Under the pieces are notes generated by a model. That model was not told the origin of the DNA. It made no database searches and was given only the letters and a program-made list of their open reading frames with translations. The position numbers and the translations under genes are program-made. 64,000 nt of DNA from Nitrospirota bacterium (GTDB lineage Bacteria; Nitrospirota; Thermodesulfovibrionia; Thermodesulfovibrionales; JdFR-86), in contig CAVRJY010000001.1 of NCBI GenBank assembly GCA_963721805.1, forward strand, positions 1,152,001 through 1,216,000, given 5' to 3'. This document shows, one piece after another, positions 4,211-53,354 of this stretch (position 1 is its first letter; the number at the start of each line of letters is the position of its first letter).

Positions 4211-4224
4211 CGGAGGGATTGGGT

Positions 4225-6739: not shown

Positions 6740-6814
6740 TGAGTGTGCAGCGCTGTTGCATAACAGGGATCGTTTTGTTATATTTATGAGATTCTCTCGG
6801 AGGAGGGCTGTGAA

Positions 6815-7585: not shown

Positions 7586-7598
7586 AGGGCTGAGCGCG

Positions 7599-29263: not shown

Positions 29264-29264
29264 G

Positions 29265-31684: not shown

Positions 31685-31691
31685 CGCGCCT

Positions 31692-31943: not shown

Positions 31944-31955
31944 AGAAGCCGGTGC

Positions 31956-32243
31956 TCAGCCCTTGCCGCTGGTGTTGTCGTAGATGAAGTTGGCAAGCGT
32001 GTCTATAGAGTAAAACAGCTCCTTGCCCTGCTCCATGTCCTTTACTTCCACGCCGAAATTGCGTTGCAGGAGCACGACGATCTCGACCGCGTCGAGGGAG
32101 TCGAGGCCGAGCCCGGCGCCGAAGAGCACCTCGTCGTCCTTTATCTCCTCGGGCTTGATGTCATCGAGCGAGAGTTCGTCGACGAGCATCGACTTGAGCT
32201 TCTTCCTTATCCCGGCCAGCGCCTCTTCCTTTGTATTGTCCAT
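31956..32243 (-). CDS. Acyl carrier protein
   Basis: LFGAGLGLDSLDAVE, the APE-cluster ACP style. Confidence 0.92.
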   Translation of the reverse strand: MDNTKEEALAGIRKKLKSMLVDELSLDDIKPEEIKDDEVLFGAGLGLDSLDAVEIVVLLQRNFGVEVKDMEQGKELFYSIDTLANFIYDNTSGKG

Positions 32244-32261
32244 CGCGTGCTCCTCTGCTGG

Positions 32262-33161: not shown

Positions 33162-34351
33162 GCTGGCTTCCGCTTTTCGAAGGCATGCGCTATGAAGAAA
33201 AACGCCGAGGCCATCAATATCGAGGCCACCGGGGCTATAACCAGCGAGCCGAGCAGCCACTCGTAGAGCCTCTGGTGAAACTGCGCAAATACGGTCTCAA
33301 ATGTAAGGTCCGTAAGCCAAGCCCCGTGGCGCATGTAATAGCCCAGCTCTATGCAGAGCGCCGGGGTGAACGGGGCCATGAAGACGTGCTGGACGTTCAG
33401 GGCCACGATCTTGTTAAGGTTCAGCCTGACCGAGACGTAGAGTATCGCTGCGGTGTGCAGGAACAGCAGCGGGATTATCGCCAGAAACGAGCCGACCGCG
33501 GCAGCGGCAGCGAGCCCCTCAGGGGTCGCGTTTTCCTTTATAAGGTGGCGTATGAGCTTAAGCGGGTTGAAGATCAGCCCTATGTCGAACTTTGGCGCTG
33601 GCGCTAGCCGCTTGTGCCCGAAAGGCAGGAGCCGCAGGCCTATCAGCATCGAGTGCACGCGCGTGAGCCTGAGGTTGTCCATGACCGGCCTGAAGCTCGA
33701 GACGCGCTGCCCGGCCGGGGGGTAGTATACCCCGATCCCGACCGAGCGGAGCCTGAGCCCGGCCCAGGCCGCCTTGGCTAGCACCTCGGCCTCGAAGTCA
33801 TAGCGGCGCCCCTTGAACTTAAGTAAGTTTAGCTGTCTTACAGGATATGCCCGAAAACCGCTCTGGCAGTCGTCTATATGCTGGCCGGTCTCGATCCTGA
33901 GCCAGAAGTTCGCGAACCTACGGCCGAACCGGCTCGAGCGCGGGATGTTCTCGACGCTGAAGTCACGCGAGCCGACCACGAGGCTCAGTTCGTCGTCTTG
34001 AAGCATCGGGATGAACTTCGCGATATCGCCGGGGTCGTGCTGTCCGTCGGCGTCAATCGTGATCATATACTTGCCGCCCTGAAGCTCGACGAAGCGCGAG
34101 GCGGTGAGTATCGCCTGGCCCTTGCCCATGTTGGCGTGGTGGCGGAGCACGACAGCGTCTAAGTTCGAGATGAGTGCGCCTGCGTCGGCGTCGGTCGAGC
34201 CGTCGTCTATGACGACGACGCGGCCGGGGAGCATCCGGCAGCAGCCCTCGACGACAGCCCTAAGCGTCGGGGCGTTGTTATAGACCGGCACCGCGGCCCA
34301 GACGAGATCGGTGCCGATTGTCTCAGTTGCTGCGCTTGCGCTTGCGTTCAT
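33158..34351 (-). CDS. Glycosyltransferase family 2 fused to DUF2062
   Basis: PVYNN, IDDGSTD, IDADGQH, DCQSGFRAYP; hydrophobic C-terminal domain. Confidence 0.88.
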   Translation of the reverse strand: MNASASAATETIGTDLVWAAVPVYNNAPTLRAVVEGCCRMLPGRVVVIDDGSTDADAGALISNLDAVVLRHHANMGKGQAILTASRFVELQGGKYMITIDADGQHDPGDIAKFIPMLQDDELSLVVGSRDFSVENIPRSSRFGRRFANFWLRIETGQHIDDCQSGFRAYPVRQLNLLKFKGRRYDFEAEVLAKAAWAGLRLRSVGIGVYYPPAGQRVSSFRPVMDNLRLTRVHSMLIGLRLLPFGHKRLAPAPKFDIGLIFNPLKLIRHLIKENATPEGLAAAAAVGSFLAIIPLLFLHTAAILYVSVRLNLNKIVALNVQHVFMAPFTPALCIELGYYMRHGAWLTDLTFETVFAQFHQRLYEWLLGSLVIAPVASILMASAFFFIAHAFEKRKPA

Positions 34352-38678: not shown

Positions 38679-39157
38679 CCGAGGTCCCTGAACTCTCCGT
38701 CGAGCCAGCGTTTCCTGAACCGCACCAGCAGCTCCGGCGCCACGAGGCAGACGCTGCCGCTTGCAGCGTCGGTCAGGACCTGCACCCTGTAGCCGCTCGT
38801 CGCGAGCGTGCCGTCCGCCCTGGTAATCCTGAATTCGGTGTTTATCTTGGCCGCCTCGTTCCATATGATCGAGGCAGCTACTGAAAATTCCTCGTCGAGC
38901 GTGAGGGGGCAGAAGTAATCGATATGGAGTTCGGCTATGGGGGCGCGGAGTCCGGCCTTGAAATAGTCCTCGAACCCGAGACCGCATCTTCGGCCTAGTT
39001 CGGTCGAGGCCTCCTCGAAAAACTGCGGGTAGCGGCCGAACCACGATATGCCCATTACGTCGGCATCGCTGAAGCTCACGCGCCGCCGGATCTCGAAGCT
39101 CACCGGCTCGGGCGAGCCCGGCATGCGCTCGAAATATGCTGTCCTCCGGCGTCTCAT
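38675..39157 (-). CDS. 4HBT-type acyl-CoA/ACP thioesterase
   Basis: VSFSDADVMGISWFGRYPQFFE hotdog motif. Confidence 0.85.
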   Translation of the reverse strand: MRRRRTAYFERMPGSPEPVSFEIRRRVSFSDADVMGISWFGRYPQFFEEASTELGRRCGLGFEDYFKAGLRAPIAELHIDYFCPLTLDEEFSVAASIIWNEAAKINTEFRITRADGTLATSGYRVQVLTDAASGSVCLVAPELLVRFRKRWLDGEFRDLG

Positions 39158-39537
39158 CGTTGCGGTGCCTCGTCGAGCGATACGCGGAGCTTGATCTCAG
39201 AGACGCGCGCACCCGCCCGGCTCCACTGCGCCTTGATATCGAACTCGCCGGACTCCATCAGAGGGCCGCACTCGCAGAGCACCTCTTCGGCCGGGAGCAC
39301 AGGGGCCATAAACTTGGCGTTAATGACCTTTATGATGCGCACCGGCCTTCCGCTCCAGGTCGCGATCATACCGGCCGCGCATTCCATCTGGCATACGCCG
39401 GGCAGGACCTTCGCGCCGGGGAAGTGGCCCTGAAACCCTACGAAGTCTTCGGGAAACGAGAAGCGCGCGGAAAGCCTGCCGGACTCGAGCCCGAGACCGG
39501 ACATGCATCTGAGCGCATCGGACCTGAGGCGGTTCAA
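39154..39537 (-). CDS. FabZ/ApeI-like 3-hydroxyacyl-ACP dehydratase
   Basis: FQGHFPGAKVLPGVCQME, AKFMAPVLP. Confidence 0.85.
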   Translation of the reverse strand: MNRLRSDALRCMSGLGLESGRLSARFSFPEDFVGFQGHFPGAKVLPGVCQMECAAGMIATWSGRPVRIIKVINAKFMAPVLPAEEVLCECGPLMESGEFDIKAQWSRAGARVSEIKLRVSLDEAPQR

Positions 39538-40208
39538 TCGAGTATCTCCTTGACTTTCACGGTCAGGCTGTAGCCGTATTGATAGTTCTGTAAAAGCACG
39601 CCACGATTGATGATTTTACCATTTTTGCGCTCCGGCCCGAAATACAGCACCCGCCAGCGCAGGTCGTTCTCGACGAAATACGCCTTCTCGACCAGCGAGC
39701 CCTCGGCTCCGGCGAAGACGTATTTCATGATCCCGCCGTCCGTGCGTTCGTTGACTACCAGCTCATTGCCGTCCCACCAGCTCCACCAGCCCGCGCCCGA
39801 GGGTGTCGTATCGAAGTATATGCGCCTGATGTCCTCACCTATCTTCGCCCCGAAACTGCCTTTGCCTCCGCGCTCTAGCATAGGCAGGACGAAGCGCGTC
39901 GTCGTGCCGCTTCGGTCCCCGCTAAGCTCAAAGAGCTTCATGCCCATAGGGTTGAGGCAGGCCACAGCGAAAGTGCCCGCTGATTGGTCGAGCTCAAGCT
40001 CGCCTATGCCCGTGATCTCCTGCGGGCCGAAGCCGAAGGTCACGCTGCTTAGGAGCTTCAACTGCTGTGGTATCGCGGCCCTGTATTGCGCGATAACCTG
40101 TGCGGGGTCGTGCGAGGGCATCGGCGTGCGCCCGACCGGGGCGAAGGGAAGGGCGGCGGCGCAGGCCGAAAGCGCGAGCGCCGCGATCATGAGTATCAAG
40201 GCCCTCAT
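39534..40208 (-). CDS. Lipoprotein (DUF3261-like)
   Basis: Lipobox LSAC; PMGMKLFEL motif; APE-cluster context. Confidence 0.65.
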   Translation of the reverse strand: MRALILMIAALALSACAAALPFAPVGRTPMPSHDPAQVIAQYRAAIPQQLKLLSSVTFGFGPQEITGIGELELDQSAGTFAVACLNPMGMKLFELSGDRSGTTTRFVLPMLERGGKGSFGAKIGEDIRRIYFDTTPSGAGWWSWWDGNELVVNERTDGGIMKYVFAGAEGSLVEKAYFVENDLRWRVLYFGPERKNGKIINRGVLLQNYQYGYSLTVKVKEILD

Positions 40209-42610
40209 TTAGTGCGCACCACGAGGAACATGCGGCAGAGCGCGGGGACTAGCGTTATCGAGCTTAGCCAGCCGATAAGCAGGCTGATGCTCATCGCGAG
40301 TCCCATCGAGAACAGCGCGGGGTGGCGCGCGAACAGCAGGACTGCGGTGCCGATCACGGTCGAGACCGCCGATAGCGATATGCCGAGCACCGTGCCGAGG
40401 TTAAGCCTCTCGTGGTGCTGGTATGTTATCCCGATCCCGAAATCCACGACTATTCCGGCGGTGACGATGCTCGCTATTATGTTGGCGATGTTCACCGGGA
40501 CGTTCATCACGGCCATGATCCCCAGCAGCCATATCGTGCTTGCGGCCACGGGTATTAAGGCTATCAGCGCGGCCTTGAGGTTCCTGAAAAACAGCGCGGT
40601 AAGTATGATGTTGGCCGCGATCGCGAGCGGCACGAGCAGGTATGCCTCGCGGCTCGTGAAGATCGAGATAGAGCGCGAGAGCGCGCGCCGCGAGAGCACG
40701 AACGCTCCGGGCTGGTCCTTCGTTATCGCATCGACCTTGCGCAGGGACTCAGCGTCGTCGGGGAAGAACGATAGCACCTGGTACTGGCCGCCGCTTTGGT
40801 GGACGAACCGCTCCTTGAGCCTGCCGAGCAGCTCGTCTATCGAGCCCGAGTCGATGGATTTGGGGTAGAGGTTGTCAAAGAACGGGCCGAATGCGTCGGC
40901 CGAAAAACCGTAGCGGGCGCCCTCGGATTTGATGAGCGATTTAAGCCTGTCTTCGCGGCCGCCGCGCCAGAACGCGTTCCAGCGGCCGATGTTCGCGCTG
41001 CGCTTTTCTCCGGAGGGCCAGAGCATCGAGAAGCTTACGAAGTTGCCGATCCCCGAGGCGGTCGCCATCTCGTACGCGCGGTCGCTCTGCCTGAGCGCGT
41101 CTTCGTAGGTCTTGCCGCTCAGCACGAGTATGGCCTGGCTGTCGGTGCCCCCCCATGCCTCGTGAAACCGCGCCTCCGCGTCCTTGACGTACTGCTCGGT
41201 GCCGTCAAGCTGTGCCACGTTGCTCTCGACGTGCACCCCGAAAGCGCAATACAGGAGCACGGCCGTGGCCACCAGCCACAACGCCACCATGGCGCGGCTG
41301 GAGCCGAACGTGCGTTCGAGGTGGCGCTCCAAAAACGAATGGTAAAGCGCGCCCTCGCGTCTCCACCGGAGCGCGTGCGGCAGGATGAACATCGCAAGGA
41401 AGACCGAGGCGGCGATGCAGACCATCGAGAATACCGCGAGCTGGCGGTAGCCCTCGATGCGCGACAGAAGCAGCACGCCGAAGCTCGCAGCGGTCGTGAT
41501 CGCGTCGATGAAGATGAGCCTCGCGAGCTTGACCGTGTTCCGGTCGTCGAGCAGGCCCTTCTTCGCGGCGATGTAGGAATATATGCCGTAGTCTATCGTG
41601 ATGCCGCCTATGACCGTCCCGAACCCTATCACGACCGATGCGAGGTCCCCAAGCAGCATCCCGGTGATGTTGATCGAATATATGACGCCGATCATCGGGA
41701 TCGCGAATACGAGCCCGACCCTGGGGTCGCGGAAGACGCCCAGAAAGAGTATCAGAAACGCGGCCGAGGCGATCAGCGACGTGAGCTTCACGTCGCGCTC
41801 GATCACGCGCTGGTTGCTCACCGTATGGAAGTGCCCGCCCACGGCGTCGACGGTTACGTTAGGCGGGAGAGCCTTGATCTCGCGTTCGACATACTGCACG
41901 AGGCGCTTGCTTCCGATGCTGTCGGTCATAGGGATCGAGGTCTGCGCGATGACGAGCGCATGGCGGCCGTCGAGGCTCACGAGGTGGCCGCCCTCGATCA
42001 TGAGCTGGTAGCCCATCGAATCCGATAGGGCCTTAAATTTACGCAATGCCTGCAATCGCAGCCCGAGAGGGTCGGAGCGCGACATCGAGCCCATCAGGAT
42101 GCTCTCGGGCTTGAACGATTGTAGGTATATCTGGCGCATCCGGGCCGAGATACCGTCTGGCGTGATCATGCGGTCGATATCCTTCAGGTCATTGTCGGTG
42201 CTCACCGAGGCCACGTATCCCATGAATTCACCCGACATCATCGAGCCCGGGGAAAACCCGGTCACGACCTCCGAGAACATCGGCGGCTTTAGCGCGGCCG
42301 CGAATCGGTCGACCGCGGCGAAAAGCTCCTCGTGCCCGCCCTGTCCGGGGTCTTTGAGCGAGACCGAGAACACGACCTTCCCCGAGAGGTTGGTCTCGCG
42401 CAAAAACGTCATGTCGCGCCTGATCTCCGGCTCGTCCGGGAGCATAAGGTCTATGTCGCCCCTGAAGCGGTGAAACCCGAGGCTGGCAGCGGCTATGACC
42501 GTGAGCGCCAGAAGGCCGAGCAGGACGCCCTTGCGGTGCCGCTCTATCGCATGGTAGAGGGCAAGTACGGCGCGTTCAAACACCGCGCTCGACCTTGAAG
42601 TCACCGTCAT
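40205..42610 (-). CDS. MMPL/RND family lipid exporter (alternative GTG start 42583)
   Basis: Two repeats of TM + large loop + TM bundle; GITIDYGI and GIVVDFGI motifs. Confidence 0.88.
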   Translation of the reverse strand: MTVTSRSSAVFERAVLALYHAIERHRKGVLLGLLALTVIAAASLGFHRFRGDIDLMLPDEPEIRRDMTFLRETNLSGKVVFSVSLKDPGQGGHEELFAAVDRFAAALKPPMFSEVVTGFSPGSMMSGEFMGYVASVSTDNDLKDIDRMITPDGISARMRQIYLQSFKPESILMGSMSRSDPLGLRLQALRKFKALSDSMGYQLMIEGGHLVSLDGRHALVIAQTSIPMTDSIGSKRLVQYVEREIKALPPNVTVDAVGGHFHTVSNQRVIERDVKLTSLIASAAFLILFLGVFRDPRVGLVFAIPMIGVIYSINITGMLLGDLASVVIGFGTVIGGITIDYGIYSYIAAKKGLLDDRNTVKLARLIFIDAITTAASFGVLLLSRIEGYRQLAVFSMVCIAASVFLAMFILPHALRWRREGALYHSFLERHLERTFGSSRAMVALWLVATAVLLYCAFGVHVESNVAQLDGTEQYVKDAEARFHEAWGGTDSQAILVLSGKTYEDALRQSDRAYEMATASGIGNFVSFSMLWPSGEKRSANIGRWNAFWRGGREDRLKSLIKSEGARYGFSADAFGPFFDNLYPKSIDSGSIDELLGRLKERFVHQSGGQYQVLSFFPDDAESLRKVDAITKDQPGAFVLSRRALSRSISIFTSREAYLLVPLAIAANIILTALFFRNLKAALIALIPVAASTIWLLGIMAVMNVPVNIANIIASIVTAGIVVDFGIGITYQHHERLNLGTVLGISLSAVSTVIGTAVLLFARHPALFSMGLAMSISLLIGWLSSITLVPALCRMFLVVRTK

Positions 42611-43208
42611 TGAGCGGGGCGTCGATCACGGTATTGATGAAGTTGATCGTCGTGACGTCCTTGCCGGTCTCCTCGATCCTGATTCCCTTTAGGTACTTCT
42701 CGTCGTCCCTGAACGTGACGATGATGCGTTTGATCACGCTCCTGGCGGGGTTCTTCGAGTTAGGCGTAAATTCGAGCGCGAGCGGGGCGTGGCTCAGCAC
42801 GCGGACGTCGTTGTCCTCCGTTAGCGCGGCGAAGTCCCCGGTAAACCAGACATTCAACTGGTTCAGGACGTTTTTGAGTATCGGGTTTCCGACGAGCGAG
42901 ACCTCTTGCACCTTGCCGGATTCCTCGTCCCACTGGCGGATGAATTTGTCCGTCATGAGCACGCCGTAGCGGATCGGGCTGTCGACGTGCCATGCGACCT
43001 TGTTGGGTTTCTGGAGGTAAATGCGCCCCTTGATCGTGAGGCGGTGCTTGAACATCGCGAGGTCCTTCTCCTGCACGAAATCGGTCTTGAGCGTCTTAAA
43101 CGCCGAGACGTGCGAGCCTATAGTGCGCAGGAGCGCCGGGACGTCCTCGGCCGCATACAGCGGCGTTGCGATGAGCAGAAGGCATATAACTGCAAGTGCG
43201 CGCCGCAT
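42576..43208 (-). CDS. LolA-like periplasmic lipid/lipoprotein carrier
   Basis: Signal peptide; DFVQEK, G.IYLQKP.KVAW..DSP. Confidence 0.82.
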   Translation of the reverse strand: MRRALAVICLLLIATPLYAAEDVPALLRTIGSHVSAFKTLKTDFVQEKDLAMFKHRLTIKGRIYLQKPNKVAWHVDSPIRYGVLMTDKFIRQWDEESGKVQEVSLVGNPILKNVLNQLNVWFTGDFAALTEDNDVRVLSHAPLALEFTPNSKNPARSVIKRIIVTFRDDEKYLKGIRIEETGKDVTTINFINTVIDAPLNDGDFKVERGV

Positions 43209-44683
43209 CAATTGAGCCCCTTCTGCCAGATCTTGATCTCGCCCTGGGCGATCGTGGCCTCGCCGTTTTGGACCGTGCCGTGCACCAGGCCGAACTCGCC
43301 GAACTTGCCGAGCTTTCGGACATGGACGCGGAGCCTGTCGCCGGCCCTCGCCGTGCCCGTGATCTCGAAATCCTTGACCCCGATCAGGAAGCCATCGCCT
43401 GAGCCGCCCTCGCGGCCCATCGTGCGAAAGCCGTGTTGCGCCGCGATGGCCTGCGCGACGATCTCGACGTACGCGGGCTCGCCGAGCCTGCCGTCGGCCT
43501 CGACGAAGATATTGTCCGCGCCGATGTCGGCCTCGACCGTGGCCGAACGCTCGCCGACCTCGACGAGTCGGCTGATGAGCAGCATCGGCGGGCGGTGCGG
43601 CACGAGCATCGAGGCCTCGGCCGGTACGGTCATGATCTCGTGCTGCCGCGCGATGTTCCTCCAGCACAGGGGGTCGGAGGCGAGGTAGTCGCCGGTCATC
43701 TGAAACGCCGCGCCCCGGCAGCCGTAGCAGTTGTCGATCCGCTCGCACTGGCGGCACGGACCCTTGATCGTCTGCCTATAGCTCTTGAGGTCTCCGATCA
43801 CCTCGCTCTCGCGGATGATCTCCCTAAGCGGCTTTTGCCGGATGTTGCCGACCGGGATCGTGACCCCCACGCATGGCTGCACGTCACCGAGCGCGTTTAC
43901 GGCGCACGAGAAGCGGTGCCTGAGGCACTCGCCTCCCGCGAGCGGCGGCTGCGGCGTCCAGTCCTTGCCGTACTCGCGGTCTATGCCCGCAAGTTCGGTG
44001 AAGAGTTCCTTCACGCGGTCGCTCTCGACATAGAGGTTGTCGTTTTCGCGCGCGTTTCCCTGTGGGGTGATCATCTCGAAGTAGGGGTTCAGACCGTTTT
44101 TGCGGAGCCAGCGCCACATGGCCGGAAGCTCGGCGAGGTTCTGGCGGCAGACGATAGTGCTGATCCCAAGCTCGCTGCCCTCCGAGGGATACCCGGCCTC
44201 GCGCAGGTTCCTGAATGCCTCCTGTATCTGAAGGTACGCGCCTTTCTTGCCGGAGAGCGTGTCCTGGAGCTTCTCGTCGAAGGTGTTCATCTTAAGCGCT
44301 ACGGTCACGCCGTGGGCATGGAGACGCCGCGCGTTCTCTAAGGTCATGTTAGTCCCGTTCGTGAAGATCTCGACCGACATCCCGTGCAGCCGGATGAAGT
44401 CTATCATCCCGGTGATGTGGCGGTAGAGCATCGGCTCGCCGCCGAGGATGATGATCTTCCTCGCGCCGAGCTCTCGGGCCTGCATGATGATGCCCTCGGC
44501 CTCCTCGCGCGTAAGCTCGATGCGCGGGTCGGCGGTCTTCGCTGCATAGCAGTAGACGCAGCGGAAGTTGCAGGCCTGGTTGAACTCTATCTCCATCGAG
44601 AGCAGGCGTCCCTCGCGGACCGCCTCCTCGACCTCGGCCTGCGAGAACTCCGCCCCGTATACGCGTCGATCGCAACTGCTCAT
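43208..44683 (-). CDS. Radical SAM/SPASM protein fused to a C-terminal hotdog (ApeP/FabZ-like) domain
   Basis: CNFRCVYC, GGEP; SPASM Cys (C..GDVQPC..CRQC....C.GCRG..DPLC); C-terminal LVPHRPPMLL...EIVAQAIAA. Confidence 0.88.
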   Translation of the reverse strand: MSSCDRRVYGAEFSQAEVEEAVREGRLLSMEIEFNQACNFRCVYCYAAKTADPRIELTREEAEGIIMQARELGARKIIILGGEPMLYRHITGMIDFIRLHGMSVEIFTNGTNMTLENARRLHAHGVTVALKMNTFDEKLQDTLSGKKGAYLQIQEAFRNLREAGYPSEGSELGISTIVCRQNLAELPAMWRWLRKNGLNPYFEMITPQGNARENDNLYVESDRVKELFTELAGIDREYGKDWTPQPPLAGGECLRHRFSCAVNALGDVQPCVGVTIPVGNIRQKPLREIIRESEVIGDLKSYRQTIKGPCRQCERIDNCYGCRGAAFQMTGDYLASDPLCWRNIARQHEIMTVPAEASMLVPHRPPMLLISRLVEVGERSATVEADIGADNIFVEADGRLGEPAYVEIVAQAIAAQHGFRTMGREGGSGDGFLIGVKDFEITGTARAGDRLRVHVRKLGKFGEFGLVHGTVQNGEATIAQGEIKIWQKGLN

Positions 44684-44686: not shown

Positions 44687-45983
44687 TTATTTCCTCATAT
44701 CTAGAAACCTGATGGGTTTTCGGGAGTTGCCCGGATATATGCGTCCCATGATCTCGTCGTCAGCGACTATCACGACCTCCGGCCTGACGCGCAGGCGGGC
44801 TTGCAGCGCGTTCGTCACGTCCACGGGCGAGCCGCCGAACTCCGGGCTGACCGATATCAGCACGCGAAGCTCGTCGGAGAGCTCGTAGCCGCCGGATGAG
44901 ACCTCAAGGCAGTACTCGCTCACGCCCGACGATGGCGTCTAACACCTCAAACACCATGTTCGGATAGAGCGTCGTGCCTCGAAACTTCATCATCTGCTGC
45001 TTGCGGCCGAGGATCGGCCCTATGCGCGGCGTGTTGCGGCCGCACGAGCAGGGCTCGCTGACCAGAAAGCTCACGTCCCCGGTGCGGAACCTCAGCAGAG
45101 GCATCCCCTCGATCCCGAGCGGCGTGAGCACGATCTCTCCGGCCTCTCCGTCCGCAACGCGGCCTCCGGCGTCATCCACGATCTCGACTATAGCGAGTTC
45201 GGGGTGGAGGTGCCCGCCGCAGCCCCCGGTGCATTCGCAAAACGAGCTGATCGTCTCGGACGAGGCGTAGGTCGAAAATACCTTTGCACCATCCCATGCC
45301 TCGGCGAGCCTCTGCCCCAGCGGCGAGGGGCGCAGGTCGCGACCGCGCACCGGCTCGCCTATGCAGATCAGCCGCTTCACGCCGGATGCAGCCTCAGCGA
45401 GCCCTGAGCCGGAGAGGAACCTGCCGAGCTTCGCGAGGAACGATGGCACGCCGACTATGGCCGTGGGCCTGAGGCGCGAGATGATCTCGGCGTGGCTCTC
45501 CAGCGTGTTGAGGCCGTTACGGATCGCGGCCGCGCCTATCGCCCTGACGCCGAGGTAATACGCGAGCCCGGCTATGAAGCACCGGTCCATAGTGCAGGTA
45601 AGCAGGACGGTGTCCTCGGCCGTGAGCCCGGTCGACGCGAACGAGAGCTGCTCGTTATATGCGAGCCGGTCGAGGTCAGCTCTAGTGTACATGATGCGCG
45701 TCGGCCTGCCTGTGGTGCCTGAGGAGAGCACGATGTCCTCGATCTTCGAGACCGGCACCGATAGCAGCTCGTCGTTGTGGTCGCTAAACGCCTTCTTGTC
45801 AGTCAGCGGAAAATCCGCAAGGAGGTCGAGACCGAGCGGGCCCGTGGGAATATCCTTCAGCAGCCTGCGGTAATAGGGCGAGCGCTCCGCGATATAGCGC
45901 AGGTGCTCGCCCAGCAGGCGTTCCTGCATCGCGCGTATCTCGGCGGGAGTGCCGAACTCGATGGCTCCGGGCTTTGGGTTCAT
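44687..45983 (-). CDS. Phenylacetate-CoA ligase family protein, with an apparent +1 frameshift at ~44926
   Basis: SSGTTGRP, TYASSE, GMPLLRFRTGD, GTTLYP; removing one G gives ...DAIVGVSEYCLEV..., joining ORF 44687-44923. Confidence 0.85.
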
Positions 45984-46741
45984 GAGCCGGCCTCCATCAG
46001 GTCGAGTTCGTGCTGGATCGTATCGCGTATGCGGTTTTTGAGCGTGAAGACCTGCATGCCCTTGTAGTCTTCCTGTTGGACGGCCGGAAGCCTTCTGACG
46101 CGGATCGTACCGGGCCGGAGCATTAGCGAGCCCTTGCGGGGTATGTCCTCGCTGCCAGAGATGCAGACAGGCACTATCGGCGCGCCGCACTGAAGCGCGA
46201 GCCGCGCGAACGCCCCGTTGAAGCTCCCCATCCGCCTGCTTGCCGAGCGCGTCCCCTCGGGGAAGAACGCTATCGATACGCCCTGTCCGAGCAGTTCGCG
46301 GCAGCGTGAGAAAAACTCGTCCGGGTCCATGCGCTTGATGTTTAGATACCCCGCGGCCTTCGCGAACTGCCCGATCACCGGGATCTTGAACGGCCATACG
46401 TTTACGATCTGCACGATCTCGTAAGGGAACACGCACAGCAGGTATGCGTCCGAGGCCGAACGGTGGTTGCAGACGAATATATACGGCGCGCCCGTATCTG
46501 ACGCGTCGCCATGGTCCTCGTACCTGAGCCTGATGAACGGATACGGCATCGAGGTCACGATCTTTCCATAGAGGCTGATCGCGCGGCGGAAGTACCGCAT
46601 CGCGGTGCGGTGGCTCACGAAGGGCGCGCGTACCGCCACCCCTAGCGTCAGCAGCGGGATCGCCATGGCCGAGGCGGCCAGTATCAGGGCGTAGCTGTAG
46701 ATGCTGAGCGCCAGATGCCCTATCCGCCCTGCTGATTGCAC
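45980..46741 (-). CDS. PlsC-like lysophospholipid acyltransferase
   Basis: NHRSASD (HxxxxD), FFPEGTRS. Confidence 0.9.
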   Translation of the reverse strand: MQSAGRIGHLALSIYSYALILAASAMAIPLLTLGVAVRAPFVSHRTAMRYFRRAISLYGKIVTSMPYPFIRLRYEDHGDASDTGAPYIFVCNHRSASDAYLLCVFPYEIVQIVNVWPFKIPVIGQFAKAAGYLNIKRMDPDEFFSRCRELLGQGVSIAFFPEGTRSASRRMGSFNGAFARLALQCGAPIVPVCISGSEDIPRKGSLMLRPGTIRVRRLPAVQQEDYKGMQVFTLKNRIRDTIQHELDLMEAGS

Positions 46742-46743: not shown

Positions 46744-47001
46744 CTATCCGGCCATCTTCTGAGCTATGAATTTGTAGATGTCCGCAAGGGTGCGTATCTC
46801 CCTCACGCTCGCCTCGTCTCGGATGCTCACGCCGAAGGCCTTCTGGAGCGCGACGACGAGGTCGACCACGTCGAGGCTGTCGAGGCCGAGCTCGGTGAAG
46901 ATGTTGGCCTCGGGCACCAGCCTCGCGGGCTCGATCTCGAATGAGTCCTCGAAGACCTTGTTAGTTTTTTCTATGATTTCACGTTCTGTCATCTCAGTCA
47001 C
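46744..47001 (-). CDS. Acyl carrier protein
   Basis: LGLDSLDVVDLV. Confidence 0.92.
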   Translation of the reverse strand: MTEMTEREIIEKTNKVFEDSFEIEPARLVPEANIFTELGLDSLDVVDLVVALQKAFGVSIRDEASVREIRTLADIYKFIAQKMAG

Positions 47002-48230
47002 CTTTCTTCATCCGGCTGGAGCTTCCTGCATACGAGTGCGGAGTTTATCCCGCCGAAGGCGAAACAGTTTTTCAGTATGGTATTTATCGTCGCGTCCCTC
47101 CGGGCGGTCACGTGGTCTATGCCCGCGCAGTCGTCAGCGACGTTCTTGAGGTTCAGCGTCGGGTAGATCACGCCGCGCCGCATCATCTCGAGCGTTGCGA
47201 TCAGCTCCAGCGCGCCCGAGGCCCCCAGCGTGTGGCCCATGTAGCCCTTGAGGCTGCTCACCGGCGTGCCGTCGCCTATGACCTCGCGGATAGCGGCCGC
47301 TTCCTCCGCGTCGCCCTGCAATGTTGCTGTGGCGTGCGCATTGACGTAGTCCACTTCCGGGGCGGTGATGCCTGCCTCGGCCATAGCGGTGCTCATGCAG
47401 TATGCCATCGAGCCCCGGTCTGACTGGCTCATGTGGCTGCCGCTCCCGCTCGTGGCATAGCCGGTGATCTCGGCGTATATATGCGCCCCGCGCGAGACGG
47501 CGCGCTCGTAGTCTTCGAGCACCAAAATCCCCGAGCCCTCGCCGCATACGAGGCCGTCGCGATCACGGTCGAAGGGGCGGGGGGTGGCCTCCGGGCTGTC
47601 GTTATACCCCGCGGATGTGGCGTATAGCACGTCGAACGAGCCGGTCACGGTCGGGTGGAGCTCCTCGGCCCCGCCGCAGAGCAGGACGTCCTGCCGCCCG
47701 ATGCGGATCATGTCATACCCGGTTCCTATCGCCTGAAGCGCTGAGGCGCAGGCCGCGGCGGTGTCCATGATAAGCCCGTTTAAGTTCAGGTACTGCGAGA
47801 CGTTTGCGGCTGCGGTATGGGCCACGCACTGAAAGAACATCGTGGAGTTTAGCTTTGAGATGTCGTGGGCCGGGAGCATCGTCTCGAACACGTCGCTTAT
47901 GCTCTTGGCGCTGCCCATCGTCGAGCCTACGATGCACCCGGCGCGGCGCTCGGGCAGCTCGGTTATGCCCGCATCAGCCAGCGCAAGCCCCGCGGCCTGT
48001 GCGGCGAATATGCTCATGCGGCCCATCGTGCGGCGCTTCTGCCTTGGGATGAGCTTTTCGTCCGTGACCTCAGCAGGCGCTCCGACGAGGCTTTTTAGCC
48101 CCTTGTATGCCTCCCATCCGGGCATCCTGCGCACGCGGCTCTCCCCTGAGGCGATACCGGACATCATCGCCTCGGTGCCCTTCCCAAAGGGCGAGACCGC
48201 GCCCATCCCCGTGATGACGACGCGCCTCAC
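46998..48230 (-). CDS. Beta-ketoacyl-ACP synthase (FabF/ApeR-like)
   Basis: RVVITGMG, AAACASA, HATAT, KGYMGHTLGASG, FAFGG. Confidence 0.93.
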   Translation of the reverse strand: MRRVVITGMGAVSPFGKGTEAMMSGIASGESRVRRMPGWEAYKGLKSLVGAPAEVTDEKLIPRQKRRTMGRMSIFAAQAAGLALADAGITELPERRAGCIVGSTMGSAKSISDVFETMLPAHDISKLNSTMFFQCVAHTAAANVSQYLNLNGLIMDTAAACASALQAIGTGYDMIRIGRQDVLLCGGAEELHPTVTGSFDVLYATSAGYNDSPEATPRPFDRDRDGLVCGEGSGILVLEDYERAVSRGAHIYAEITGYATSGSGSHMSQSDRGSMAYCMSTAMAEAGITAPEVDYVNAHATATLQGDAEEAAAIREVIGDGTPVSSLKGYMGHTLGASGALELIATLEMMRRGVIYPTLNLKNVADDCAGIDHVTARRDATINTILKNCFAFGGINSALVCRKLQPDEER

Positions 48231-49726
48231 CGGCCGAGCCCCCGTTCTATGAAGCCGTCGAGCGTTGCGCCGTCGAGCACCGAGCGCGCCACGATGAACG
48301 AGGACATCATCGCCCCGATTATGCCGGGCAATAGCGAACTCTGCCCGGCGGCGAGGAGGTTTCGCAGCGGGAGCTCCGAGCGCAGGTTGATCTGCCCGAG
48401 CTTCTGCTTGATGCCATAGGCCGAGCCGTCGGGGCTGTGCAGGTAGTCCCTGAAGGTAAGCACGCTCGCGGAATCGAGCACCTCGATCTTCGATGAATAT
48501 TGGGGGAGCATCGCGCATATGCGCTCTATCATGCGGCCGGTCTTGGCCGCCTTGAATTGCCGGTAGTCCTCCGGCCGCTTGCCGGTCGTCGTGTCTGCCC
48601 ATCGTGCGGCGGAGTCGACCGAGGCGGGCTCAAAGAGGCTCAGCACCTTGCGGGGCCTGCCGTGCACCAGCTCGATGGATTTCATCAGCAGTATCGCGGA
48701 GTCCGGTATGCCCTGATCGAGCATGCGGTTGATGTCCGCTTCGGGCATAATGGTCAGCAGCGAGCGGCCGAAGTCCGCCTCCTCGAACTCATCCGGCAAT
48801 ACCGAGAAGACCGAGAAGAAACCCGTAGAGGACTCAAACGAGCTGACGCGCTCCCTGAACGCCGGGGATACGCACCCCGGAGGCAGGAGGTCGATGATCC
48901 CCTTGGGGTGGATCGTGAATACGCAGTGGCCGGCCGCGATCTCCTCTCCGGTGCTGAGGATAAAACGCTTTACGCGCTTGCCCTCGATCTCGGCGAGTTC
49001 GCTGATACGGCAGCCGGTCTGGATCTCGATGTCCAGCCCCCTGGCGCGGGCCTTGAACGCCTTGATGAACGCCTCGCCGCCGTCTTTGACGCGCGCCATC
49101 GACTCGTACAGCCCGATGCTCATCCTCGCGTGGTTCGCGAACGAGACCTCGGAGGGCTTGGTGCCGTAGCACATCGCGAATACCGACAGCAGGGCATGGA
49201 GCGTGCGGTTTGGGCTCAGCGAGTCCAGTACGCTTTGGAGGCTCACGAAATCCTCCTCGATATGGGTGTGCTTGGCGCACAGCCTGCGGAGGTCCATCGA
49301 GGGCGTCCGGGAGCATACGTCGCGGAGCATCATGAAATATTTATCTATCGCGGCGGCCTCGGAGGGGAAATACCCCGAGAGCTTTCGCCTTATGCGGTCT
49401 ATTCCGGCGGGGATGTCATACCTGAGCCCTGTGTCTTCGAACAGGAGGGAGCTCGCGGAGTCTTCCTGAAGGAACTCAGGCTCGATCATCCCCTCGATGC
49501 CGAGCACGCGGAGGATGTCGTTGAGGATGCCGCCCGGCTCGAGCCCGCCGCTAAAGTGAAACCCCGTATCGAACGGGACGCCCTGCAGCCTGAAGCGGGA
49601 CATCGAGCCGCCGATTATAGGGGCTGCCTCGATAAGCAGGACCTTGCGGCCGTTGAGGCCGAGTATGAGCGCCATCGTCATGCCGCTGATGCCGCTGCCT
49701 ACGACAATGGAGTCGAACCTCCGCAT
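48227..49726 (-). CDS. Phytoene desaturase (CrtI)/retinol-saturase-like FAD oxidoreductase
   Basis: VVGSGISG, FDTGFHFSG, GSAYG, AGQS..PG..GA. Confidence 0.85.
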   Translation of the reverse strand: MRRFDSIVVGSGISGMTMALILGLNGRKVLLIEAAPIIGGSMSRFRLQGVPFDTGFHFSGGLEPGGILNDILRVLGIEGMIEPEFLQEDSASSLLFEDTGLRYDIPAGIDRIRRKLSGYFPSEAAAIDKYFMMLRDVCSRTPSMDLRRLCAKHTHIEEDFVSLQSVLDSLSPNRTLHALLSVFAMCYGTKPSEVSFANHARMSIGLYESMARVKDGGEAFIKAFKARARGLDIEIQTGCRISELAEIEGKRVKRFILSTGEEIAAGHCVFTIHPKGIIDLLPPGCVSPAFRERVSSFESSTGFFSVFSVLPDEFEEADFGRSLLTIMPEADINRMLDQGIPDSAILLMKSIELVHGRPRKVLSLFEPASVDSAARWADTTTGKRPEDYRQFKAAKTGRMIERICAMLPQYSSKIEVLDSASVLTFRDYLHSPDGSAYGIKQKLGQINLRSELPLRNLLAAGQSSLLPGIIGAMMSSFIVARSVLDGATLDGFIERGLGR

Positions 49727-49731
49727 GCGCC

Positions 49732-50454
49732 CTACATCGCCAGACCGCCGTTTACGGCGATCACCTGTCCATGGATGTACATCTCGGGCTCGGTGCAGAG
49801 GAAGTTCACGACCGAGGCGACCTCGCCGACCGAGCCCACGCGGTTAAGCGGGATCAGCGGTATCACCTGCTCCTTGGGTATGTGCGCGGTCATGTCCGTA
49901 TCGATGAAGCCGGGGGCCACGACGTTTACGAGTATGCCGCGCTTGCCGACCTCGCGGGCGAGCGCCTTCGCGGCCCCGATCAGCCCGGCCTTCGAGGCGG
50001 AGTAGTTCACCTGCCCGGCCTGCCCGATCTGGCCCGAGGCCGATGAGATCACGACTATGCGGCCCTTCCTGCGCCTGAGCATCTCAAAGACCACGGGCTT
50101 GACGACATTGAAAAACCCGTCGAGGTTCGTCGAGAGCACCGCGTCCCATTCGTCTTTTTTCATCATCGCCATGAGGTTGTCGCGCGCGATGCCGGAGTTG
50201 TAGACGAGCACCGCGGGTGTTGCGGATTCGAGCCTGCCTGCAAGCGCGGCCGCGGTCTCGTCATAGGACGCGACGTCAAACGCAATGAGCTCACAGCTGC
50301 GGCCCATGGCCTCGATCTCGGATTTCACCTCGGAGGCGGCCACGGAATTTTGTTTGTACGTGAGCCATATATCGAACCCGGAGCCCGCAAGCCGCAGCGC
50401 TATTGCCCGTCCGATGCCGCGGCTTCCGCCCACGACCAGTGCGATTTCGGCCAT
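49732..50454 (-). CDS. fabG: 3-oxoacyl-ACP reductase
   Basis: GGSRGIG, GIARD, YSASK, VAPGFIDTDM. Confidence 0.93.
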   Translation of the reverse strand: MAEIALVVGGSRGIGRAIALRLAGSGFDIWLTYKQNSVAASEVKSEIEAMGRSCELIAFDVASYDETAAALAGRLESATPAVLVYNSGIARDNLMAMMKKDEWDAVLSTNLDGFFNVVKPVVFEMLRRRKGRIVVISSASGQIGQAGQVNYSASKAGLIGAAKALAREVGKRGILVNVVAPGFIDTDMTAHIPKEQVIPLIPLNRVGSVGEVASVVNFLCTEPEMYIHGQVIAVNGGLAM

Positions 50455-50480
50455 GTCTCTCCCCTGTGGTACGCTTAGAT

Positions 50481-50533
50481 ATTACAATAATACGGTAATG
50501 TTAATTATCCCTGAAAATCGCCCGGTTTTTCAA
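50481..50533 (-). promoter_or_regulatory. Putative internal promoter (TTGAAA-18-GATAAT) with an ATTAC-N9-GTAAT palindrome downstream, upstream of fabG
   Basis: The only sizeable (~95 bp), AT-rich gap inside the cluster. Confidence 0.45.
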
Positions 50534-50549
50534 CCGAATCCGGGGCTTA

Positions 50550-51578
50550 TCAGGGTTTTTTCAACGATATCCAGCCCCTTGAGCCCGCGCAGTCGAGCCT
50601 CAGGCAGCGGATGGATTTAAGGGGGACGGCGGGGGAGGGCTCATATAGTTTGATCCCCGAGGGGTTTTCAGTGACGGGGTTCGGGAACCCGGCCCCGCGC
50701 CGCAGCATCAGGGCCGAGGCCGTGAGGTGAAACGCGCTTGAGCTCATAGAGCTGCCGAATACCGGCGAGTATGAGGCCACGGGCATGCCGTCAGGTATAG
50801 CGGCCAGGTACCCGGACTCGTCCGGGAGCATGCCGTCCGTGTCGATAACGAGCAGGCTTTCTGTCGCCGCGTTTTCATCGAACCCGACCGCAGCGATCCG
50901 GGCGATAGCATCGCCTGAGCTTTGAGGGCCGAGAAGGAAAAAGGCCGCGCCTTCGCCGGGCACGCAGCCCGTCCGGTTAAACCCGAAGGGCGAGATCCGC
51001 TCAGATGGGTGGAGCATCCGGCCAGCGACATGCCCGAGCACCTCGCCGTACTGCTCGACGCCGCCCACTAAGACATGCTTGCACCTGCCCTCGCCAATCC
51101 AGAGCCCGGCAAGCACGAGCGCGTGGTGCAGCGAGAATGCGAACTCGGTGATCGTCACAGTCGGCCCCTGTATGCCGAGCACGGATGAGATGTATGACGC
51201 GGCGGCGTTGTGCACGGAGTTGGAAAACGTGGTCGGCGATACGCCCGCATCCCCGTAGTCGAGGATGTCGTCCAGAAACTCGAAGGTCGTGACGTGCGCG
51301 CCTAGCGCTGTAGAGACTATCACGCCGGTATCGGCTGGGTCGATTGCGCCGAAGCTCGCGGCCTCGGACGCGGCGAGCACGGCCATCTTGCTTAGCTTGT
51401 CCGCGCGGCGGATTTTTTTTAGGGAAGGGTCCGTGACCCCGTCGAGCGATACGCGGCAGGCGTACCGCCCCTTCTCATCGGGTGCGGCGAAGCTCCGGGA
51501 GTTAATGAGCGCGTCTTCGAAGCTCTCAATTCCGCGCCCGCCCGCGAATATCGTCCCTATACCTAGTATGTCGATCAT
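50550..51578 (-). CDS. Ketosynthase chain-length-factor-like protein
   Basis: IRRADKLSKMA, VSPTTFSNSVHNAAAS, PGEGA; lacks the catalytic Cys. Confidence 0.82.
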   Translation of the reverse strand: MIDILGIGTIFAGGRGIESFEDALINSRSFAAPDEKGRYACRVSLDGVTDPSLKKIRRADKLSKMAVLAASEAASFGAIDPADTGVIVSTALGAHVTTFEFLDDILDYGDAGVSPTTFSNSVHNAAASYISSVLGIQGPTVTITEFAFSLHHALVLAGLWIGEGRCKHVLVGGVEQYGEVLGHVAGRMLHPSERISPFGFNRTGCVPGEGAAFFLLGPQSSGDAIARIAAVGFDENAATESLLVIDTDGMLPDESGYLAAIPDGMPVASYSPVFGSSMSSSAFHLTASALMLRRGAGFPNPVTENPSGIKLYEPSPAVPLKSIRCLRLDCAGSRGWISLKKP

Positions 51579-52747
51579 GAATAGAGCCCTATTACGAGCG
51601 CGGAGTTGTTGCCCCCGAACGCGAGCGAAGTGGATATCGCATGCCTGCCCTCGACGGCGGTCCTTTGCGTAAGCGGCGTGATCGGGATGCCCTCGTCCCG
51701 GTTTTGAAACCCGGCAGAGGCCGGGAGCCATCCCTCACGGAGCCCCATCGCCGTGAACGCAGCCTCGAGCCCTCCTGCAGCGCCGAGCGTGTGGCCTGTG
51801 TAGCCCTTGGTCGAGAGCACCTTTGCATCGTTGCCGAAAATATTGGCGAGCACCGCGCCCTCGACCTTGTCGTTCTCCATCGTGCCGGTGCCATGGGCAT
51901 TGACGAACGCGATCTCAGCGGGCGATATCGCGGCCTCCTGCATCGCGCGGTATATCGCCTTCGTGAGCCCCCGGCCCCCGGGGTGGGGAGAGGTCAGGTG
52001 GTATGCGTCGGCCGCTGTGCCGTAGCCGAGCAAGCGGAGGTCAGCCCTCGCGCCTCGCCTTCGGGCCGAGCCTTCGCTCTCGAGCACGAGCACGCCCGCG
52101 CCCTCGCCGAGGTTGAGGCCGCGCCTGTCGCGGTCGAAAGGCGAGCAGAGGCCGGGGTTGACTATCCCGAGGCTGGAAAACCCGCAGTACGGTATCCGGT
52201 TGAGTTCGTCCGTGCCCCCGGCTATCGCGATCTCACACAGCCCGGCCCTGATCCATGAGAGCGCGACGCCTATCGCATCGGTGCCGGATGAGCACGCGTT
52301 TGCGACGGTCATACGAGGCCCGCGAAGGCCAAGCATTTTTGCCAGCGCGGCGGCCGGGTTGCCCTTCAGGAACCGCTCTACCGCGTCCATCGGGGCGTCG
52401 CCCGCCCGGCGGTATTCGCTGTAAAACGCGAGGTCATTGAGCTCGCAGGCTACCGTGGTGCCGATAGCGATGCCCGCGCCCGCCATATCGCCCTGCTCGA
52501 GCCCGGCGTTCTCAAGCGCCTGCCTGACAGCATGCAGAGCGAGCCCCAAAGACCGCTGACCAGTCAGATGGTATTTATCCGGTAAATTTCGCACCTCGAA
52601 GACCGGGTGCCGAAGCGGGGTTTTAAACAGGGTGGGGGGCGCTGCGTTTCTCCTCGATGCCTCGAATGAGGCGAGGGTCTCCCGGTACCCGGCCCCCAGA
52701 GCCGAGATCATGCCCATGCCGCTTATGACGACCCCGCGCTCCCGCAC
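51575..52747 (-). CDS. Beta-ketoacyl-ACP synthase (ApeO-like KS)
   Basis: ANACSSG, DAYHLTSP, HGTGT, KGYTGHTLGAAG, AFGG. Confidence 0.93.
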   Translation of the reverse strand: MRERGVVISGMGMISALGAGYRETLASFEASRRNAAPPTLFKTPLRHPVFEVRNLPDKYHLTGQRSLGLALHAVRQALENAGLEQGDMAGAGIAIGTTVACELNDLAFYSEYRRAGDAPMDAVERFLKGNPAAALAKMLGLRGPRMTVANACSSGTDAIGVALSWIRAGLCEIAIAGGTDELNRIPYCGFSSLGIVNPGLCSPFDRDRRGLNLGEGAGVLVLESEGSARRRGARADLRLLGYGTAADAYHLTSPHPGGRGLTKAIYRAMQEAAISPAEIAFVNAHGTGTMENDKVEGAVLANIFGNDAKVLSTKGYTGHTLGAAGGLEAAFTAMGLREGWLPASAGFQNRDEGIPITPLTQRTAVEGRHAISTSLAFGGNNSALVIGLYS

Positions 52748-52752
52748 GTATC

Positions 52753-53352
52753 TTAAAGCAGCAACAGGCCCAGCCGCAGGCGTATGCTGTTGAGCGGGCC
52801 GTTGGGGCGCGAGGTGCCAGCGTTCGAGATATGGTGGTAGCGGCAGTTGAGGTCGACAGCTACGTGCCTGCCCCAGAGTTCCATATCGGTCGGCCACTTG
52901 ACGCCCGCGCCGAACTGGTACGAGCCGTCCCACTCGCGGCTGAGTTCGGGGACGTGGAGGTTCGTGTAGACCGGCCCGCCTCCGCCGAAAACGTAGGGGA
53001 CGAAACCCTTGGGAGAGGTGAAGTTCCATATGGCGAAGAAGTGAAGCCCGACGATGACCGCGCTCTCGGGGCTGTATACGTAGCTGACCGGAAGCTCGAC
53101 CGCGAATTCGTGGCGGCCGCGATACCAGGAGTCCCCGCCGATCTCGCCGGTCAGGAAATACCCGTAACGTCCCACCAGGTCTATGGCCTCAACGCGCGAG
53201 CGCGTCGCGCCCATGCCGGGGATCGTCTCGCCATATCCGGTGAACAGGCCCCATTCGTCCTTTGCGGTGAGGAAGGCGTCCCGCGTGTCAGCGAGCGCGG
53301 GGGCCGCTGTGCATATAAGCAGCAACAGTGCAAAAAGTACGCGCCTGTGCAC
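52753..53352 (-). CDS. Outer-membrane acyloxyacyl hydrolase / PagL-like beta-barrel
   Basis: Signal peptide (APALA), amphipathic beta strands, YHHISNAG..PN...N catalytic motif. Confidence 0.82.
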   Translation of the reverse strand: MHRRVLFALLLLICTAAPALADTRDAFLTAKDEWGLFTGYGETIPGMGATRSRVEAIDLVGRYGYFLTGEIGGDSWYRGRHEFAVELPVSYVYSPESAVIVGLHFFAIWNFTSPKGFVPYVFGGGGPVYTNLHVPELSREWDGSYQFGAGVKWPTDMELWGRHVAVDLNCRYHHISNAGTSRPNGPLNSIRLRLGLLLL

Positions 53353-53354
53353 CG

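Follow-up and report, generated by a model that had tools for sequence, protein, structure and literature searches.

A radical SAM/SPASM enzyme fused to an ApeP-type dehydratase half in an aryl-polyene-like cluster of Nitrospirota, with a possible role in starter supply

To follow up an annotation of a 64,000-nucleotide stretch of a Nitrospirota genome (hereafter, the window; GCA_963721805.1, contig CAVRJY010000001.1, positions 1,152,001 to 1,216,000), we focused on one minus-strand gene (43208..44683, 491 aa) that joins a radical S-adenosylmethionine (SAM) enzyme with a SPASM domain to a hotdog domain resembling ApeP, one half of the dehydratase of aryl-polyene (APE) biosynthesis. The fusion is real and conserved, and the hotdog domain, judged by sequence, brings the catalytic acid, i.e., half an active site. 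We propose, with a probability of about one half, that the radical domain supplies or matures an aryl starter for a FlxY-like CoA ligase, standing in for a tyrosine or phenylalanine ammonia-lyase (TAL/PAL). The fusion family is apparently uncharacterised: a literature search, mostly of openly readable papers, found none on the fusion or on a radical SAM enzyme replacing an ammonia-lyase (supplements might mention the genes). The architecture was already visible in automatic annotation (P0030).

The fusion gene and its dehydratase half

The 491-aa frame holds a radical SAM barrel (aa 1-245; 43949..44683), a SPASM domain (aa 246-345; 43649..43948) and the ApeP-type hotdog domain (aa 352-487; 43223..43630), all on the minus strand. 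Pfam places Radical_SAM at aa 33-177 (PF04055, 82.6 bits) and SPASM at aa 253-314 (PF13186, 32 bits, cut-off 21.5), and its ApeP-like family (PF22817) matches aa 357-486 at E 3.9e-5 and 23.7 bits, under the cut-off of 27, and is marked there by newer precomputed Pfam. The AlphaFold model of the whole chain has a pLDDT of 87.6 and a pTM of 0.86. The initial annotation, made from the sequence of the window, had described one ORF carrying a CxxxCxxC/SPASM enzyme and a hotdog domain, and this is borne out: the radical motif reads CNFRCVYC (C38/C42/C45, 44549-44572) and is followed by an intact GGEP, the hotdog motifs VPHRPPMLL and EIVAQ are present, and FxGHFP is absent from the fusion, with FQGHFP found in the separate gene at 39154-39537.

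Two other genes in this assembly are frameshifted, the CoA ligase near 44925 and an EF-G homologue (57587-59675, minus strand) near 59400, the latter suggesting indel errors in the assembly, so an artefact had to be excluded for the fusion. Both domains lie in a single ORF at 79 of 80 loci of different species (the best 80 of 591 confirmed stretches), the 80th ending at a contig edge, and all 120 homologues listed bear both Radical_SAM and ApeP-like Pfam marks (57-100% identity, 97-100% coverage; 1973 matches among 8000 candidates scored, with domain marks read for these 120). This shared architecture rules out a stop codon lost by sequencing or assembly error, the concern raised in the initial annotation, for which the nearby frameshifts were the only pointer. 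GC content at third codon positions stays at 0.83-0.91 over the junction. One DNA read set (0.28 of words) and no RNA set matched, and the contigs of the DNA set span neither the junction nor the ligase break. By record titles, fusion homologues come from Nitrospirota, Geobacter relatives, Omnitrophota, Verrucomicrobiota/Kiritimatiellia/Lentisphaeria and other deltaproteobacteria.

FabZ sites have a His and a Glu or Asp at the dimer interface (PMC10139942), and ApeI/ApeP is a heterodimer with one active site (PMC8041823). The best sequence match of the hotdog domain among Protein Data Bank (PDB) entries is 6QSR_B (E 3e-5, or 4.5e-13 with a profile), with which its fold also agrees (Z 18.1, rmsd 2.4 Å, 139 aligned). 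It differs from a FabZ/FabA homodimer, having no FxGHFP and a FabZ score of 27 bits (cut-off 113), and it has the signature of an ApeP-type half, a hotdog fold with the catalytic Glu and no FxGHFP His. Glu407 (43463-43465), at the catalytic position, is kept in 80/80 fused sequences and in 42/42 distant fusions. The domain had been called non-catalytic-looking; the absence of the His stands, and the conserved Glu rules out a non-catalytic hotdog.

The gene at 39154..39537 (minus strand) encodes the predicted partner, an ApeI-type hotdog half with His38 in its FQGHFP motif. This His is present in 56/56 homologues, and the acid position is Gln in 53/56, Leu once and Glu in the window's own copy only. 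That Glu52 (GAA, 39382-39384, minus strand) could put an acid back onto the chain that bears the His. A complex model of the fused hotdog with this protein scored 0.89, the best of three controls 0.00, at a score mark that 116 of 157 solved pairs attain, as do 2 of 215 mismatched ones; the runs share at least 97% of contacts, and the partner has a pLDDT of at least 89. The predicted contacts involve hotdog aa 362-441 only, including E407, and partner aa 36-40 with His38, and name no radical-domain residue; the model may pass through its likeness to 6QSR. ApeP and ApeI also occur as one natural chain (P0192, P0219, P0250, L067, L136); in one genome (L067:5279-6148) such a double-hotdog gene stands as a separate gene in the same cluster as a radical-ApeP fusion.

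Complementary His/Glu conservation, the complex model and the natural ApeP-ApeI fusions indicate that the fused hotdog most likely pairs with the 39154-39537 protein, and the complementary half-sites imply that the fused domain is half-catalytic. It is very probably the Glu-bearing half of a heterodimeric 3-hydroxyacyl-acyl carrier protein (ACP) dehydratase with a composite site. The initial annotation had invoked the hetero-oligomeric APE dehydratase, and the modelling it had suggested favours the pairing, via the hotdog.

The radical domain, its split forms and its loss

C38/C42/C45 and G81-G82-E83-P84 are invariant in 107 aligned sequences, as are eight Cys in the SPASM region, and together with the Pfam match and the fold they place the N-terminal half in the radical SAM superfamily and its SPASM subgroup. 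The model matches SuiB (Z 24.4, rmsd 3.6 Å, 304 aligned), CteB, SkfB, anSME and PqqE (Z 21.6-24.4), and the fold searches return generic SPASM enzymes only, at 13-22% identity. The top NCBIfam matches include AhbD, NirJ2, TIGR04053, PqqE and MftC, all far under their cut-offs (AhbD 137.5/500 at best, PqqE 99/381, MftC 91/265); no NCBIfam family names the domain, and the Atlas offers generic names only. Over aa 1-342 the fusion is 44% identical (153/344) to kuste3343, a stand-alone protein of 350 aa from the kuste3335-3352 cluster of Kuenenia stuttgartiensis (DP1855 in Desulfotalea psychrophila). P0491, the K. stuttgartiensis homologue, was equated with kuste3343 by comparing its N-terminus with the start of that gene, translated by eye from supplement S2 of PMC4790861.

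The tether between the radical enzyme and the hotdog is optional, not obligatory. Stand-alone and fused radical orthologues numbered 4 vs 32 in 301 genomes of the window's own phylum and 15 (strong matches) vs 2 in 401 genomes of the phylum of G301; 401 genomes of the phylum of G305 and 201 of the class of G303 gave 16 and 15 fused forms, respectively, in surveys that scored 3-13 candidates per genome and can miss weak forms. A stand-alone clade nests within the fused clade in a quick tree of 90 rows with fused rows subsampled (starred 96 clade, 15 fused and 9 stand-alone). There are 27 intact stand-alone radical loci, 21 of which hold ketosynthase (KS), ACP or FabG genes. Other joins are found too: ligase-ApeP (L139), acyltransferase-dead radical-ApeP (P0232) and radical-B12 radical SAM (P0199). 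More distant radical-domain relatives (P0308, P0302, P0313, P0213, P0312) are joined to TIR and GAF, ferredoxin and DUF3050, tRNA-editing or ABC ATPase domains.

Intact loci prevail among the fetched fusions (94 vs 5 degenerate or cut; one whole-operon copy, L088 at G191:C12, has many frameshifts, including in the fusion, probably long-read assembly indel errors), and in intact forms the radical domain is better conserved than the hotdog (about 60% vs 47%). Among 42 distant full-length fusion representatives, picked by hand from the best 150 matches with fragments excluded (representatives over-weight fast-evolving forms), 12 keep CxxxCxxC and GE and 30 have lost CxxxCxxC and/or GGE. These degenerate fusions retain C310, C340 and Glu407 (30/30 each), C313 (29/30) and C319 (28/30), and loss of C322 is accompanied by loss of C253 in 7/7 cases. 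The co-loss suggests one set formed by residues 253/271/322 and another by 310/313/319/340; C310, C313, C319 and C340 are probably the ligands of auxiliary cluster II, and C253, C271 and C322, with C260 or H256, those of auxiliary cluster I.

The radical domain can also be missing altogether. An Atlas cluster of 57 members has SPASM and ApeP without Radical_SAM, and 13 loci hold a stand-alone ApeP in the same operon order, two of them starting MPLCPS, like a remnant of a SPASM tail; SPASM is wholly absent in L137-L141. No radical-domain orthologue was found with the window's query in 13/13 of these stand-alone-ApeP genomes (best match 92 bits). The hotdog tree is built on few columns, leaves many forks open and counts some N-terminally cut rows as 'degenerate', so that it supports only repeated loss; by sequence, the radical domain appears to have been lost more than once. 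A metagenome scan for the context of degenerate fusions gave three loci, two of them very short, relatives of G1173 added none, and few names came from cluster look-ups.

Ammonia-lyases and the case for starter supply

The stand-alone-ApeP clusters contain unannotated ORFs, about 510-540 aa long, that are aromatic ammonia-lyases (4/4 tested; also in L140). Among 151 loci, lyase matches fell in L137, L138, L140, L141, L166 and L081, with a fragment in L124. Genome-wide, a PF00221 lyase was found in 7/13 stand-alone-ApeP genomes, in 1/25 with a stand-alone radical enzyme, in 0/2 with degenerate enzymes and in 0/56 fusion genomes (fetched ones with intact motifs, the rest with a full-length match of at least 680 bits), or 0/57 counting the window's own genome, which is 94% complete. 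The lyase accompanies the ligase: it is present in 7/7 stand-alone-ApeP genomes with a FlxY-like ligase beside ApeP vs 0/6 without, the latter having no FlxY orthologue (best 179-205 bits vs 408-456 in clusters). It lies inside the cluster in L137, L138, L140 and L141; in L166 it is flanked by ApeP and LolA, and in L081, a locus with a degenerate fusion, it adjoins the ligase.

Two types of lyase occur, with about 35% identity between them; both score under the HutH cut-off, and both show Q at a motif position that is E in the HutH-like L175. We take this Q to mark a TAL/PAL-type motif 2, partly as an assumption of ours and partly following PMC3992019. The ligases of the lyase genomes occupy three places in the ligase tree, within the starred clade that holds the fusion-linked ligases, and have the same motifs as these in 6/8 cases and close variants in two. 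The motifs compared presumably line the aryl pocket, as in PaaK structures. G1173, with a degenerate fusion, also has a separate pair of ligase and intact radical enzyme. FlxA and FlxY make 4-coumaroyl-CoA; FlxY takes 4-coumarate from the TAL FlxA and also accepts 3-phenylpropionate (PMC3992019). The loss of the radical domain together with the gain of a lyase suggests that the radical enzyme helps make the starter rather than edit the growing chain.

Under the starter proposal, the radical SAM/SPASM domain would be an active three-cluster enzyme taking the place of TAL/PAL in flexirubin-type clusters. In the most likely chemistry, the 5'-deoxyadenosyl radical would take a benzylic H from a tyrosine-derived C6-C3 unit, as MftC takes the Tyr C-beta H and oxidises its substrate to a quinone methide (PMC11350588). 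Three continuations are conceivable. Slightly favoured, yet itself unlikely, is that the SPASM clusters would then oxidise the unit to a quinone methide tautomerising to a 4-coumaroyl-type CoA/ACP thioester; a redox-neutral elimination of NH3 or H2O and the production of a different aryl acid each seem less likely still. Aryl-acrylate formation possibly takes place on a CoA- or ACP-bound unit beside the dehydratase, in which case part of the picture in the initial annotation, radical chemistry on a carrier, would survive, on the starter. The composite ApeP/ApeI site would then form the double bonds of the polyene chain, and the fusion would bring starter supply together with the dehydratase and ACP traffic. 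More tentatively, this widespread family as a whole, fused or stand-alone as in kuste3343, may be a radical stand-in for TAL/PAL making an aryl-acrylate starter for aryl-polyene-like lipids in the outer membrane of anaerobes.

Several points weigh against this proposal. The lyase pattern was noticed post hoc in four ORFs and tested further afterwards; it rests on about three lineages, two of them forced by starred branches, in metagenome-assembled genomes (MAGs), which are incomplete, and lyases are rare in MAGs anyway, placing 0/57 near background. A genome-level Fisher test overstates the association, related genomes not being independent, and we do not rely on it. In G351 the lyase gene sits on a different contig, with none of the cluster genes next to it, and in G818 a contig end truncates it. 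Two genomes are exceptions: G998 carries the ligase and no lyase, its stand-alone radical gene being interrupted by an in-frame TAG and devoid of CxxxCxxC, and the locus of G643 combines an intact, divergent radical enzyme with a lyase fragment. The stand-alone clade of L111-L116, L129 and L130 lacks a neighbouring FlxY-like ligase (at most 221 bits across the four genomes tested; another AMP-ligase is present in L112, L113 and L116), and the window's own ligase is split near 44925, where homologues are one ORF of about 435 aa, by assembly error or recent inactivation. As a confounder, the B12 radical SAM encoded at 35678-36946 is also gone from one five-genome clade (0/5 vs 15/15 fused relatives). 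The lyases' TAL/PAL-type substrate class is read from sequence, gaining a lyase may have led to a different product instead of substituting for a step, and anammox-type ligases have other motifs, so their starter may differ. A lyase of the 4-methylideneimidazole-5-one (MIO) type needs no SAM, which would make an identical radical reaction wasteful.

In the view of the initial annotation, the fusion tethers the radical enzyme to the dehydratase complex and lets it act on enoyl/polyene chains bound to ACP while they are being elongated. Such a modification could be ring formation, desaturation or cross-linking, as proposed for ladderane clusters. Retention of the fusion with a short linker across several phyla, the fixed domain packing suggested by the whole-chain pTM and the homology to kuste3343 favour this view, and for anammox clusters, radical chemistry on the growing chain has been put forward in print (PMC10139942; PMC13459092). 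It is weakened by the nesting of intact stand-alone enzymes in the fused clade, by the joins of ApeP to a ligase, to an acyltransferase with a dead radical domain or to ApeI and of the radical domain to a B12 enzyme, by degenerate radical sites with the hotdog kept, and by a predicted dehydratase interface that names no radical-domain residue; nor does it predict the lyase pattern. We consider it unlikely as stated. Action on a carrier-bound substrate is still possible, with the starter a more likely substrate than the elongating chain.

Somewhat less probable again is that the radical domain performs an optional tailoring once the starter has been loaded, or on the completed head group, possibly together with the B12 radical SAM enzyme encoded at 35678-36946, and that the lyase lineages switched product and dropped the tailoring. 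The five-genome co-loss fits this, as do natural joins to B12 radical SAM domains (P0199, P0304) and the position next to a TIGR04072-type gene in the anammox-type order. Yet 7/7 stand-alone-ApeP genomes of the phylum of G301 retain the B12 enzyme without the radical domain, and the starter of the ligase would stay unexplained in the 57 lyase-free genomes. Strict coupling to this B12 enzyme is ruled out, holding in one clade and failing in another; coupling to the TIGR04072 enzyme is mixed.

It is improbable that the fusion is an operon read-through fixed for structure or expression, with the C-terminal SPASM cluster stabilising the hotdog and the radical chemistry serving, e.g., cofactor or enzyme maturation. 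The distant fusions that lost the radical motifs and kept C310/C313/C319/C340 and Glu407, the 57-member Atlas cluster, and the cofactor and peptide maturases among the closest named families point that way. Against it stand the predominance of intact loci, the better conservation of the radical half, the KS/ACP/FabG genes at 21 of the 27 intact stand-alone loci, and the tolerance of complete SPASM loss in L137-L141.

The gene cluster and its relatives

The window's genes around the fusion, all on the minus strand and assigned by Pfam/NCBIfam except as stated, suggest an aryl-polyene-like type II polyketide synthase (PKS) cluster. The FlxY/PaaK-like CoA ligase (44687..45983), for starter activation, scores 389.5 and 30.7 bits with NF053551 in its two frames, and its whole homologues 408-456, all under the cut-off of 520. 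Next come a PlsC-type acyltransferase (45980..46741; PF01553) and a type II PKS/fatty acid synthase block (46744..52756; KS triad motifs present or absent), with an ACP (46744-47001), a KS (46998-48230), a CrtD/CrtI-like flavoprotein (48227-49726), FabG (49732-50454), a chain-length factor (CLF)-like protein (50550-51578) and a further KS (51575-52756). A PagL-like beta-barrel gene (52753-53358) heads the operon, and its homologues lie beside stand-alone radical genes (L111-L112, L116-L118, L129).

On the other side of the fusion, an export module (39534..43205) comprises LolA-like (42576-43205) and MMPL/RND (40205-42610) proteins and a probable lipoprotein (39534-40208) recognised by its N-terminus, with no family match; the roles of ApeL, ApeM and ApeN are taken from bioRxiv 10.1101/2020.12.19.423268. 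Beyond the ApeI-like gene follow a thioesterase (38675-39157), a KS (37554-38675), a CLF-like protein (36943-37659) and two B12-binding radical SAM enzymes (35678-36946 and 34323-35678), the second a TIGR04072 lipid-biosynthesis enzyme (607 bits, cut-off 360). The remaining genes (27848..34351) encode a GT2 protein with DUF2062, an LpxL-like acyltransferase, two ACPs, an FAD oxidoreductase, an AMP-binding ligase and a protein without family match (30386-31684). Part of this (27848-31943) forms an extra module at the cluster end, with the third ACP, the 432-aa no-family protein, the FAD oxidoreductase and the AMP ligase, and similar genes adjoin the fusion in L161-L163. The 432-aa protein has a DHRLFD motif, which we take to be reminiscent of condensation domains. 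At the far end of the window, a plus-strand run (52-8678) was labelled by eye, from translations only, as nucleotide-sugar/heptose-type genes.

The operon order is rigid, from FabG, CrtD-like flavoprotein, KS, ACP, acyltransferase and FlxY/PaaK-like ligase through the fusion, LolA, MMPL and lipoprotein to the ApeI-like gene, thioesterase, KS, CLF-like gene, two B12 radical SAMs and GT2, with the FabG-to-ACP order conserved among loci. The ligase lies within 4 kb of the fusion in 72/78 loci with enough upstream DNA and near 15/25 stand-alone radical loci, counts that rule out strict ligase adjacency. In one genome whose fusion operon has no ligase, a ligase of the anammox-type subclade is found away from cluster genes (L176, G202:C1:50000-69999). 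No enoyl reductase was seen among the cluster ORFs scanned with Pfam/NCBIfam, which makes a polyene likely. The pathway probably yields a glycosylated lipid, aryl-polyene-like in type, that these anaerobes export to the outer membrane.

By homology the cluster has the genes of an APE cluster: KS, CLF, ACP, both dehydratase halves (I/P), ketoreductase and an ApeM-type transporter, as well as LolA/MMPL export. It resembles the ApeI:ApeP systems of Xenorhabdus doucetiae (6QSR) and Acinetobacter baumannii (ApeH-I/ApeP) in its split dehydratase with a single active site (PMC8041823), and in A. baumannii the ApeI half is likewise fused to another pathway enzyme. Unlike these, ApeP here has an N-terminal radical SAM/SPASM enzyme, and the cluster, known from its genes, has the two B12 radical SAMs, the CrtD-like flavoprotein and the FlxY-like ligase in addition. 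The FlxA (TAL) and FlxY module of flexirubin (Chitinophaga pinensis) shares the FlxY-like ligase, and relatives without the radical domain carry an MIO lyase; the window's cluster differs from it in that no PF00221 lyase was found in the genome, the ligase scores under the FlxY cut-off, and the radical domain, here proposed in the place of FlxA, bears no relationship to it. No DarA or DarB was found among the cluster ORFs scanned (a genome-wide search was not made). The MftC/AhbD/NirJ/PqqE subgroup provides the top NCBIfam matches, the SPASM fold and, in Tyr C-beta abstraction by MftC, a mechanistic precedent; the fusion differs in its scores far under the cut-offs, its lipid-cluster context and the absence of a visible precursor peptide.

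The cluster also has the gene set of a 'ladderane-like' cluster (the TIGR04072 enzyme, the kuste3343 homologue, the PaaK-like ligase and the CrtD-like gene) and resembles the anammox, Desulfotalea and Geobacter clusters of Rattray 2009. kuste3343 likewise follows a phenylacetyl-CoA-ligase-like gene; the anammox-order loci differ in that they use a gene of the canonical FabA/FabZ type and their ligase belongs to another subclade. The gene kuste3343 was proposed as a ladderane or polyunsaturated-lipid gene and was not detected on expression in E. coli, and D. psychrophila has a syntenic cluster and makes no ladderanes (PMC2649909). By analogy, ladderane production is not expected for the cluster in the window. 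A near-complete kuste3352-3335 order was found in the window's own phylum in L084, L086, L087 and L085 (G208:C12:128500-148499), the last repeating that order with a homologue of AmxMT1 (8HD2; E 3e-115), so the cluster type is not anammox-specific.

The fusion cluster spans anaerobic Nitrospirota, Geobacter relatives, Omnitrophota and bacteria of the Planctomycetota-Verrucomicrobiota-Chlamydiota group, and its family grades from intact enzymes through forms with a dead radical site to outright absence, where a lyase takes over. According to a 2026 review, radical SAM modification of ketoacyl lipids has been proposed only for ladderanes and the Jaw5 product. The starter proposal gives a first concrete, cheaply testable function to the radical SAM family of kuste3343/DP1855, which has been listed among the ladderane candidates since 2009. 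Starter supply and chain tailoring would each be new enzymology; if the radical enzyme does stand in for TAL/PAL, it would catalyse a reaction new to radical SAM enzymes, and kuste3343 would drop out of the candidates for ladderane ring formation.

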